Below, one piece after another: positions 9,838-10,673 of a stretch of DNA of 20,958 nt. Position numbers and translations under genes: made by a program. The notes below the pieces were generated by a model. That model worked only from the letters and a program-made list of their open reading frames with translations. It ran no database searches and was not told where the DNA came from. Source of the stretch: a virus (lineage: Duplodnaviria; Heunggongvirae; Uroviricota; Caudoviricetes); IMG/VR virus record IMGVR_UViG_2703718839_000004, positions 1 to 20,958 of that record, one strand, 5' to 3'. How positions within the stretch are numbered: position 1 is the stretch's first letter; the number at the start of each line of letters is the position of its first letter.

Positions 9838-9985
9838 AATCCCCCCATAGGTATTACTGTGAATCCTCTCAGAAATTAATGAGGGGAATGAAAAATATAT
9901 TCACGGTGCTCATATAAGTAATGATTAAAGATAATTCCCATATCATGAGAAAGCCACTAAGCAGAGGCTCAAAAGATAGATGCAA

Positions 9986-10534
9986 TTACTTACTCATCAT
10001 TTCAGAAATTTCACATGAAAGACCTTCCAGTATTTTATCCACAGATTTATCGAATTCCCCCCCAGCATCCAAAATAGTGGCTATAGCTTCATTTATATTT
10101 TTAGGTCTTGAGCCATTCATGATACTAAAATAAATATCATTAGCTGGCTTCAATTCTTTTTGCGCCTTTTTAATCTGAAGCGCCACATCCGGAAAATAAA
10201 TACCAGCAAGAATTGATGACAATTCAGAAATTTTACAAAACTCTGGCGTGTTAAGATTTCGCTCGATGGTTTTATCAAGCGTTTGTTCTATAGATAGATT
10301 ACCTCCTACAAGAAGAACCCAATCACTATGAGTTTGGAATACTGATTTTTTCCAAAGAACTAAGTTTCTGTATAACTCTTCGGCCTTCTCTATTTTTTTC
10401 TTTTTATTTTCTTTAACCCATTCATTCTTTTGTTTCGAATAATGAATTAAATAAGTCATTACATTCGAAATAACAGTACCAACAAAAACACCCAAAGCCG
10501 CTAAAAGAGCAACGTTTTCCTTAGTCAATTCCAT
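9986..10534 (-). CDS. AT-rich cargo gene: membrane-anchored protein of unknown function in the Q-to-holin slot
   Basis: 182 aa from the ATG at 10534 (the annotated upstream extension runs through the terminator hairpin); N-terminal TM helix ALLAALGVFVGTVISNVMTYLI, then a Lys/Glu-rich soluble domain. Windows I hand-counted gave ~28-40% G+C versus visibly higher in neighbours. Confidence 0.6.
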   Translation of the reverse strand: MELTKENVALLAALGVFVGTVISNVMTYLIHYSKQKNEWVKENKKKKIEKAEELYRNLVLWKKSVFQTHSDWVLLVGGNLSIEQTLDKTIERNLNTPEFCKISELSSILAGIYFPDVALQIKKAQKELKPANDIYFSIMNGSRPKNINEAIATILDAGGEFDKSVDKILEGLSCEISEMMSK

Positions 10535-10543
10535 AACTCCACC

Positions 10544-10569
10544 ACAAAAAAAACCCCACCGAGGTGAGG
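10544..10569 (-). terminator. tR'-like intrinsic terminator downstream of the late promoter
   Basis: On the - strand CCTCAC-CUCG-GUGGGG hairpin (6-bp stem with one G-U pair) followed by eight U; lies ~40-60 nt downstream of the pR'-like promoter and immediately before the cargo ORF start. Confidence 0.6.
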
Positions 10570-10613
10570 TTATCATAGTAAATGGTAGTTATACAAAGCC
10601 CATTGTTGAAAAC

Positions 10614-10642
10614 ATTTTATCCATGTTTTTTGAAAAATGCAA
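10614..10642 (-). promoter_or_regulatory. pR'-like late promoter (Q-modified promoter candidate)
   Basis: On the - strand TTGCAT -17 nt- TAAAAT, located ~30 nt after the Q-like gene stop and upstream of the terminator, mirroring the lambda pR'-tR' arrangement. Confidence 0.5.
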
Positions 10643-10673
10643 GCATCATGTCGCTATCTTCGGCGAAAATCAT

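Follow-up and report, generated by a model that had tools for sequence, protein, structure and literature searches.

Among the cargo positions of lambdoid prophages, the interval between the late antiterminator gene Q and the holin gene is the one expressed most strongly, and it is this position that makes Shiga toxin dangerous. Cargo located there is made in quantity at induction, and for this reason unknown occupants of the slot are worth identifying. Here we describe one such occupant, found in a stretch of 20,958 nucleotides (nt) from a virus of the class Caudoviricetes (IMG/VR record IMGVR_UViG_2703718839_000004, positions 1 to 20,958; this whole stretch is called the window hereafter). 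The element is an open reading frame (ORF) of 182 amino acids (aa) on the minus strand, at positions 9986-10534, which a first-pass annotation made from the sequence alone had singled out as an AT-rich, membrane-anchored cargo gene. Cargo in the Q-to-holin slot under Q control is a well-known kind of element; the family to which this gene belongs is itself new. We conclude that the ORF is very probably a real cargo gene from a previously undescribed family of ~180-aa proteins, and our main new result is a positional rule that this family follows across genera and for which we found no prior description in the literature.

Several described systems invite comparison with this locus. Like Stx2 and other cargo of the Q-to-S interval, the gene sits downstream of Q, of a late promoter (pR') and of its terminator (tR'), and upstream of the holin, and so has the same site and control logic; Stx2, however, is an unrelated secreted AB5 toxin, whereas the cargo protein has a membrane anchor. 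HK97 gp15, T4 Imm and P22 SieA are inner-membrane superinfection-exclusion proteins of phages or prophages, small accessory products as the cargo protein appears to be, although their genomic positions differ. The antiholins and lysis regulators (T4 RI and RIII, P1 LydB, lambda S107) adjoin holin genes, are co-transcribed late and are membrane-associated or act at the cytoplasmic face, all of which recalls the cargo gene; it has no homology to these regulators, however, keeps to no single holin type and is missing from most phages with the same cassette, and T4 RI is periplasmic whereas the cargo protein is predicted to be cytoplasmic. HK97 gp15 is described as a moron in work cited within PMC11364771. 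In phi80, experiments have shown that TaiEcA stops competing phages from assembling their tails; it is paired with a forward-strand, Q-dependent antidote, AtiEcA (PMC11364771). The pair shares with the cargo gene a location in a slot flanking the lambdoid lysis cassette, and Ati also lies on the late-operon strand; yet TaiEcA has no blastp match to the cargo protein, lies on the opposite strand and lacks a transmembrane (TM) anchor, and Ati is an unrelated protein of 76 aa.

Results

Evidence for a functional gene

The coordinates proposed by the first-pass annotation (9986-10534, minus strand, 182 aa, 549 nt) proved correct, as RefSeq holds the same gene as a 549-nt coding sequence (WP_021542884.1, product 'hypothetical protein'). 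The start ATG at 10534 has GGTGGAG ahead of it, and MELTKEN opens every homologue. A mechanical ORF list gives a 196-aa version from the ATG at 10576, which we rejected in favour of the 182-aa form because that upstream start is unconserved and lies within a terminator hairpin (see below), because the homologues begin with MELTKEN and because the RefSeq coding sequence has 549 nt. A 70-aa ORF on the plus strand (9921-10133) was also rejected, being antisense inside the cargo gene. The ORF contains 33.3% G+C (27% at third codon positions), whereas the whole window has 50.8% and its neighbouring genes have 47.5-55.8% (Q, 47.5%; holin_3_7, 47.5%; DUF968, 55.8%). The ORF has the lowest G+C content among the 549-nt stretches of the window (z = -3.2), which bears out its reported AT-richness relative to its neighbours.

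Across family pairs without saturation, the ratio of nonsynonymous to synonymous substitution rates (dN/dS) is 0.08-0.27, with values of 0.11-0.22 for the cargo gene, and in nine clusters the length is steady at 179-182 aa with zero frameshifts. The same ORF is found identical and intact in Escherichia coli EC43, where it is gene ACS98X_RS07660 of record NZ_CP196712 and the prophage is complete, and the AlphaFold2 model of the protein, built on a ten-sequence alignment, reaches a mean predicted local distance difference test score (pLDDT) of 90.2. Together, these observations show that the ORF is a functional, horizontally mobile accessory gene of the 'moron' type, with purifying selection across the family. 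A reading in which it is a neutral passenger or a decaying ORF, functionless in this prophage, could draw on two features of the window: the terminator behind the gene has decayed (9951-9970, minus strand; a weak hairpin with z = -0.5 and no U-tract), and the prophage is cut by P2-like DNA right after Rz1. We consider this reading very improbable, given the intact copy in the complete EC43 prophage, the purifying selection, the confident fold prediction and the conservation of two motifs, KGEELY and IYFP.

Architecture of the protein and extent of the family

The cargo protein has one hydrophobic segment at residues ~8-30 (nt 10513-10445), and the remainder contains 23% Lys and Glu. In the AlphaFold2 model, a single long helix (residues 5-76) begins with the membrane segment, later helices pack as a four-helix bundle, and the TM helix runs straight into this bundle. 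The first-pass description of one N-terminal TM helix followed by a Lys/Glu-rich domain of no recognisable family therefore holds.

A word-indexed search of 5.8 billion clusters recovered nine relatives with 99-37% identity, which come from Citrobacter, Enterobacter and Pluralibacter. Among 1.84 billion representatives, a profile search returned 86 proteins at E < 0.001, nearly all 170-190 aa long and aligned end to end, and a second word-indexed search using the profile added five more members. The family is deeply diverged, forming ~86 clusters at the 50% identity level in a set of 15 billion proteins, and all phage-borne members examined are AT-rich (32-42% G+C). The recurrent motifs are KGEELY, located immediately on the inner side of the membrane, and IYFP, located where helices join.

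A single N-terminal hydrophobic segment is present in 85 of 91 members. The tail ahead of it has a median of 7 residues and contains no or one Lys/Arg in 84/91 (maximum 3), with ~5 such residues in the 20 positions behind the segment and, in every one of the 91, more behind than before. By the positive-inside rule, the bundle would be cytoplasmic (N-out/C-in), so that the topology prediction suggested by the first-pass annotation now gives a single N-terminal segment with a predicted orientation. The TM segment is rich in Gly, Ala and Ser (37-58% small residues in most members), and in the close family G15 and G19 of a G15xxxG19 motif are invariant; this small-residue helix suggests helix-helix packing.

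Searches of Pfam, PHROGs, NCBIfam and PADLOC with the cargo protein assigned no family, and no Pfam or PHROG match was obtained even though these libraries hold exclusion models such as SieB. Fifty-two relatives searched against Pfam, PHROG, PADLOC and the PDB had no family match either; for the cargo protein and for these relatives alike, the matches were sub-threshold and driven by the TM segment. A profile search of the PDB gave no match below E 0.1, and Foldseek against the PDB and BFVD returned generic bundles, none below E 0.01; the fold therefore gives no functional identity. These remote-homology and structure comparisons, which had been proposed as a check on the initial reading, linked the protein to no lysis or structural component. 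We found no paper mentioning WP_021542884.1, and broader literature searches turned up the Tai/Ati precedent alone. None of Pfam, PHROGs, NCBIfam, PADLOC and the PDB has an entry for the family, which is new and unannotated.

In PADLOC-DB v2, the cargo protein has a single weak match (SngC, E 0.014), and the 52 relatives have scattered single matches, all above E 8e-4. Two of these, from one family member each, are to Csx28 and to a 1TM effector model (E ~0.002), both isolated and sub-threshold. Csx28 (associated with Cas13b) and the 1TM effectors of cyclic-oligonucleotide-based anti-phage signalling (CBASS) have a layout similar to that of the cargo protein, namely an N-terminal TM segment and a helical cytoplasmic domain of ~150 aa in a protein of ~180 aa, but there is no Cas13b or cyclase nearby and the HEPN-type Rx4-6H motif is not conserved in the alignments. 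The four-helix-bundle fold is also common to 4HB_MCP and to the NIT domain of NasR, at 8-12% identity and with no sequence-family match; those domains are periplasmic and lie between two TM helices, whereas the cargo protein has one TM segment and is predicted on the opposite side of the membrane. We regard this likeness as generic, because de novo designed bundles score equally.

Some assignments were considered and rejected. The cargo protein has no Cys before residue 100 and therefore no lipobox, which is incompatible with an outer-membrane exclusion lipoprotein (Cor, Llp or Bor-like). It is not an Rz-type i-spanin, since the C-terminus is predicted inside in 91/91 members, there is no embedded lipoprotein ORF and a separate Rz/Rz1 pair is present at 8026-8572. 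By sequence it does not belong to a known lysis family, with no Pfam, PHROG or NCBIfam match for the protein or its 52 relatives.

A positional rule across genera

In each phage context recovered, the family gene lies on the late-operon strand, in either the Q-to-holin or the spanin-to-terminase slot, whatever the type of Q, holin or terminase. The close subfamily (at least 36% identity) is always between Q and holin, and it spans three Q families (PF03589, PF06530 and PF06323) and at least three holin types. Its slots occur with or without additional cargo, and the gene is usually the last before the holin. Seven further, more distant lineages (~20-30% identity) are all in the spanin-to-terminase slot on the late-operon strand; they are L034 and those of Klebsiella (L030-33), Sodalis (L036), Pantoea (L035), two IMG/VR contigs (L037 and L038) and the isolated Enterobacter phage ENT1 (L040). 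In five of these seven, the family gene is the first behind the spanin, and in the other two the intervening gene is Tai-like (L038) or Rha-like (L040). Two remote members lie outside phage contexts. One of them (L025, 4164-4700), with 36% G+C in a chromosome of ~60% G+C, is located between a fatty-acid desaturase and an M20 peptidase, and no phage genes were seen in the 4-6 kb examined on each side.

This distribution brings in an accessory lysis-timing factor as an alternative, that is, an inner-membrane protein with a cytoplasmic bundle, co-expressed with the holin, which would delay or sharpen holin triggering either generically, by affecting membrane energisation or holin raft formation, or through TM-TM contacts, antiholin-like without kinship to the antiholins. 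Each phage-borne member that was recovered shares the strand of the late operon and occupies one of the two slots at the edges of a lysis cassette, and the gene usually adjoins the cassette, also where the slot contains further cargo (L008, L013, L014, L030, L036). The Gly/Ala/Ser-rich TM segment would also suit such a role, as would the predicted topology, since an N-out/C-in orientation with a charged cytoplasmic tail is known for holins. Position is weak evidence here, because both flanking slots are generally known as cargo sites of lambdoid late operons, and adjacency has exceptions, in L038 and in L023, where the order is Q, family gene, methylase, holin. Moreover, the same holin_8/holin_3_7/GH19 cassette works with the same Q in many genomes that lack the gene, and the family shows no specificity, being combined with at least four types of holin (PF16931+PF05449, PF04971, PF16080 and others) and differing endolysins; on these grounds we rejected a constant pairing with one cognate holin. 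The terminator that separates gene and holin in relatives, the stand-alone member of L025 and the absence of any match to a Pfam or PHROG lysis family also speak against a role in lysis timing, which we hold to be rather doubtful, though close behind the function that we favour below.

A variable slot behind the late promoter

The cargo gene is rare. Among 5426 complete E. coli genomes, it is present in two, EC43 (100% identity) and MINF_2E (99.9%), whereas 2521 have the Q gene or the holins. The close family has zero copies in 50,697 deposited phage genomes and none in a GTDB scan with one genome per species. Elsewhere the same Q and holins flank an 85-aa ORF (L015) or ORFs of 89 and 264 aa (L016), and the slot of phage mEp460 holds two small ORFs and a methylase. 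The content of the interval thus varies among related prophages, with several alternative occupants, and the gene is not a core gene of its relatives, a finding that could have overturned the initial reading had it gone the other way. The gene is present in some prophages and missing from close relatives at the same site, and its base composition deviates in the window and in all relatives, as is characteristic of morons.

The first-pass remark that this is the slot in which Stx phages carry stx is literally true for this type of Q: in a Stx2c phage whose Q protein is nearly identical and whose leader is the same, the slot holds a lipoprotein-like gene, a methylase and stx2A/B, so that stx2c sits further down the same slot. 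A host-modulating lysogenic-conversion factor outside phage conflict, acting on envelope physiology, stress tolerance or division via the cytoplasmic bundle, may be considered on this account, as the slot carries conversion genes, Stx2c being the example here, and bor, porins and cold-shock genes are known as conversion cargo. An anchor with a cytoplasmic helical domain also recalls small envelope-organising proteins, and one member has a weak ZapG-like match and another a weak LapA-like match (E ~0.002-0.01). Each of these matches stands alone, falls short of the threshold and most probably reflects composition. The gene is also rare, with nothing to tie it to a host phenotype, and we judge this explanation decidedly unlikely.

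The cargo gene is the first gene behind the pR'-leader-tR' unit of Q in this prophage. The pR'-like late promoter (10614-10642, minus strand) consists of a -35 element TTGCAT (10642-10637), a 17-nt spacer and a -10 element TAAAAT (10619-10614); a consensus promoter scan missed it because its -35 element matches the consensus at three of six bases. Behind it lie a short leader and a tR'-like terminator (10546-10607, minus strand), with the motif ATGGGCTTTGT at 10603-10593, a stem at 10571-10552 and a tract of eight T at 10553-10546. The hairpin has eight stem pairs, is present in the minimum-free-energy fold (z = -2.6) and was also called by a terminator scan. We aligned the control regions of eight loci with this Q type, namely the window, four that carry the gene and three that lack it (from an E. 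coli prophage, phage mEp460 and the Stx2c phage). TTGCA is invariant, the -10 element follows the pattern TAnnAT and the leader motif is invariant, and the terminator stem carries compensatory changes (CCTCACC/GGTGGGG, CCTCGC/GCGGGG, CCCGCC/GGCGGG, ACTCAC/GTGAGT). This conservation and covariation give good support to the pR'/tR' pair that the first-pass annotation had pointed out; promoter activity at pR' is predicted from the same data, and the position of the gene suggests that its expression would depend on Q.

The ~93 nt behind the Q stop codon (10673-10581, covering the 5' part of the leader only) are present in 589/5426 complete E. coli genomes. Between gene-bearing and gene-less loci, homology runs out at the T-tract, which marks the left edge of the variable slot, and the cargo ATG begins 11 nt past this tract, directly behind the terminator, as had been claimed. 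This start, and the absence of transfer RNA (tRNA) genes from the slot, set the locus apart from Stx2-type cargo; Rfam and tRNA scans found no RNA or tRNA gene inside the slot. The right edge is marked by an inverted repeat, CCCCTC...GAGAGG (9865-9886, minus strand), ~30-50 nt upstream of the holin_8 start, which also precedes holin_8 in L010, L014, L019 and L028.

A strong intrinsic terminator lies directly behind the gene in most relatives (three were folded, z -3.0 to -4.3; the others were called by scan). An intrinsic terminator is irrelevant to Q-modified polymerase, and its retention in diverse sequence forms suggests that Q-independent transcription reaches the gene and must be held off the holin. 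In L008, the 533-nt gap between the family gene and the holin (6589-7029, plus strand) contains three terminator-like sites and a promoter-like TTCAAA-18-TAAAAT (6815-6844), and in that lineage the late promoter might lie downstream rather than upstream of the gene. L008 also has a copy of the CCCCTC...GAGAGG repeat after the gene's terminator although its holin is of another type, which suggests past recombination there.

Defence-type genes in the slots of relatives

The slots of several relatives hold genes of a defensive type. In a Citrobacter prophage (L004), whose cargo-gene copy is 73% identical to ours, the spanin-to-terminase slot carries a 204-aa gene (8567-9181, minus strand) that is 99% identical to phi80 orf63, that is, TaiEcA (L039, phi80 1172-1786). 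A Tai-like gene with 27% identity and an RNxxAH motif lies directly upstream of the family member in L038 (5069-5722, minus strand). In Klebsiella (L030, L031 and L033; 3169-3987 / 680-1498, minus strand), the Q-to-holin slot contains an opposite-strand TIR_2 gene of 272 aa, in L037 it contains a HicB-like gene, and DNA methylases are also among the occupants of relatives' slots. Finally, a protein of 333-336 aa with a central hydrophobic segment is encoded on the opposite strand, in the interval that separates Q (PF06530) from the lysis region, in two distant lineages that each have a member of the cargo family, with 38% identity between them (L008 4782-5792, L028 4784-5794 and L034 3190-4191); it has weak relatives in Moraxella and Pasteurella phages.

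These neighbours lend some substance to a late-expressed self-protection or counter-defence function, AtiEcA-like, in which the cargo protein would neutralise a membrane-acting defence, of the prophage or the host, by which the lytic growth of the phage itself would be aborted. In all phage contexts, the gene is on the forward strand of the Q-controlled operon, and defence-type genes on the opposite strand occur nearby: the Tai-like gene of L038, TaiEcA in L004, TIR_2 in L030-33 and the 333-336-aa TM protein in L008/L028 and L034. An opposite-strand defence with a forward-strand, Q-dependent antidote in this region has a precedent (PMC11364771). Nevertheless, neither the window nor the complete EC43 prophage has an opposite-strand partner near the gene, the partners belong to at least three unrelated families with no fixed pairing, the protein does not resemble AtiEcA (hhalign probability 0.1) and, in L004, the place of Ati beside Tai is already taken by a small forward ORF. 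Counter-defence therefore seems to us unlikely. An obligatory two-gene system with the 333-336-aa protein or a Tai-like partner was rejected because the window and EC43 have no partner and partners vary between lineages, and identity with Ati was rejected on the same hhalign result and because there is no Tai gene in the window or in the EC43 prophage.

The lysis cassette and the remainder of the window

On the minus strand, the gene order is RusA, a KilA-N protein, DUF968, Q, the cargo ORF, two holin-family genes, a GH19 endolysin and Rz/Rz1. Q (10674-11426, 250 aa) is a late antiterminator (PF03589 Antiterm, 8.8e-53; phrog_127, 1e-107), and its DNA is 91-96% identical to ydfT/Q in many E. 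coli prophages. The end of the cargo gene is separated by 148 nt from the first gene of the lysis cassette, a Phage_holin_8 gene (9451-9837; PF16931, 1e-34; phrog_198), which is followed by a second holin-family gene (Phage_holin_3_7, 9183-9464; PF05449, 7e-20; phrog_217), the GH19-type endolysin (8569-9183; phrog_181, 8e-87; PF00182) and the Rz/Rz1 spanin pair (8026-8572; phrog_214, 3e-47), the last of the lambdoid block; all are on the minus strand. The EC43 lysC gene aligns to window positions 8361-8026.

The lambdoid prophage ends right after the Rz1/lysC ORF, where it abuts a convergent P2-like late block (window 1-8029, plus strand) with a tape measure gene (2973-6050), gpU (6047-6532), gpD (6529-7629) and ogr (7687-7938). 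P2-like identity stops at ~8029, which puts the junction at ~8026-8030, and the Rz1 reading frame in the window extends to 7912. This lambdoid/P2-like junction was found in none of the 5426 complete E. coli genomes; beyond the same point, the EC43 prophage continues with a GrlR-like gene, an HNH gene and terminase. In the lambdoid early region, Rfam identified a C4 antisense RNA (82.8 bits) beside the Hfq-binding small RNA isrK (63.7 bits), at 16055-16243 on the minus strand.

Discussion

The study of a single ORF in the Q-to-holin slot has led us to a family that is defined both by its architecture and by its position. As to what the protein does, we tentatively favour a membrane-acting factor in competition between phages, by exclusion or abortive infection, in keeping with the host-directed or exclusion role first suggested for it, while recognising that this falls short of a probable assignment. 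In such a mechanism, the protein would oligomerise within the inner membrane via its small-residue TM helix and the cytoplasmic bundle would serve as a binding or sensing module. It could then act either by blocking the genome entry of a competing phage at the inner membrane (superinfection exclusion) or by collapsing the membrane upon binding a foreign phage component (abortive infection). The lysogen would contain a low level of the product through leakage at tR', with strong expression once Q acts at induction, and the terminator behind the gene in relatives would keep transcripts that are not antiterminated off the holin. We base this preference on the rarity of the gene, its patchy and deeply diverged distribution, its constant AT-richness, its moron-type terminator, the defence-rich neighbourhoods and the one stand-alone chromosomal copy. 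Conflict genes typically show such rarity, patchiness and deep divergence.

Several observations weigh against a function in phage competition. The protein has no homology to a known exclusion or defence protein, and PADLOC gave nothing consistent over 52 members. No promoter of its own rises above chance upstream of the gene, in the window or in relatives, and in the window there is no room for one between tR' and the ATG, so that expression in the lysogen rests on an assumed leak through tR'. The Tai and TIR genes of these slots are on the opposite strand, whereas the family gene follows the direction of the late operon in all phage contexts, and this strict co-orientation better fits a late-lytic than a lysogen-protective role. 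The modelled fold is a generic bundle, uninformative on mechanism, and the position beside lysis cassettes is equally explained by an accessory lysis-timing factor.

Because the family flanks lysis cassettes on either side in many genera, a lysis-linked role stays seriously in play. It is possible, if on balance doubtful, that the family is a hitherto unrecognised, widely mobile element which accompanies lambdoid lysis cassettes and has its own function late in the lytic cycle, in which case its strict co-orientation and its position would reflect function rather than the availability of a slot. Such a companion could be a lysis-timing regulator independent of holin type, or a late membrane shield against membrane-acting abortive-infection effectors.

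In conclusion, a family with a confident fold, a uniform predicted topology and a rigid position can be tested as a whole. If the favoured function in exclusion or abortive infection is true, it would add a single-gene membrane system to the defence repertoire of prophages; if instead the family tunes lysis independently of holin type, it would represent a new kind of lysis regulator.

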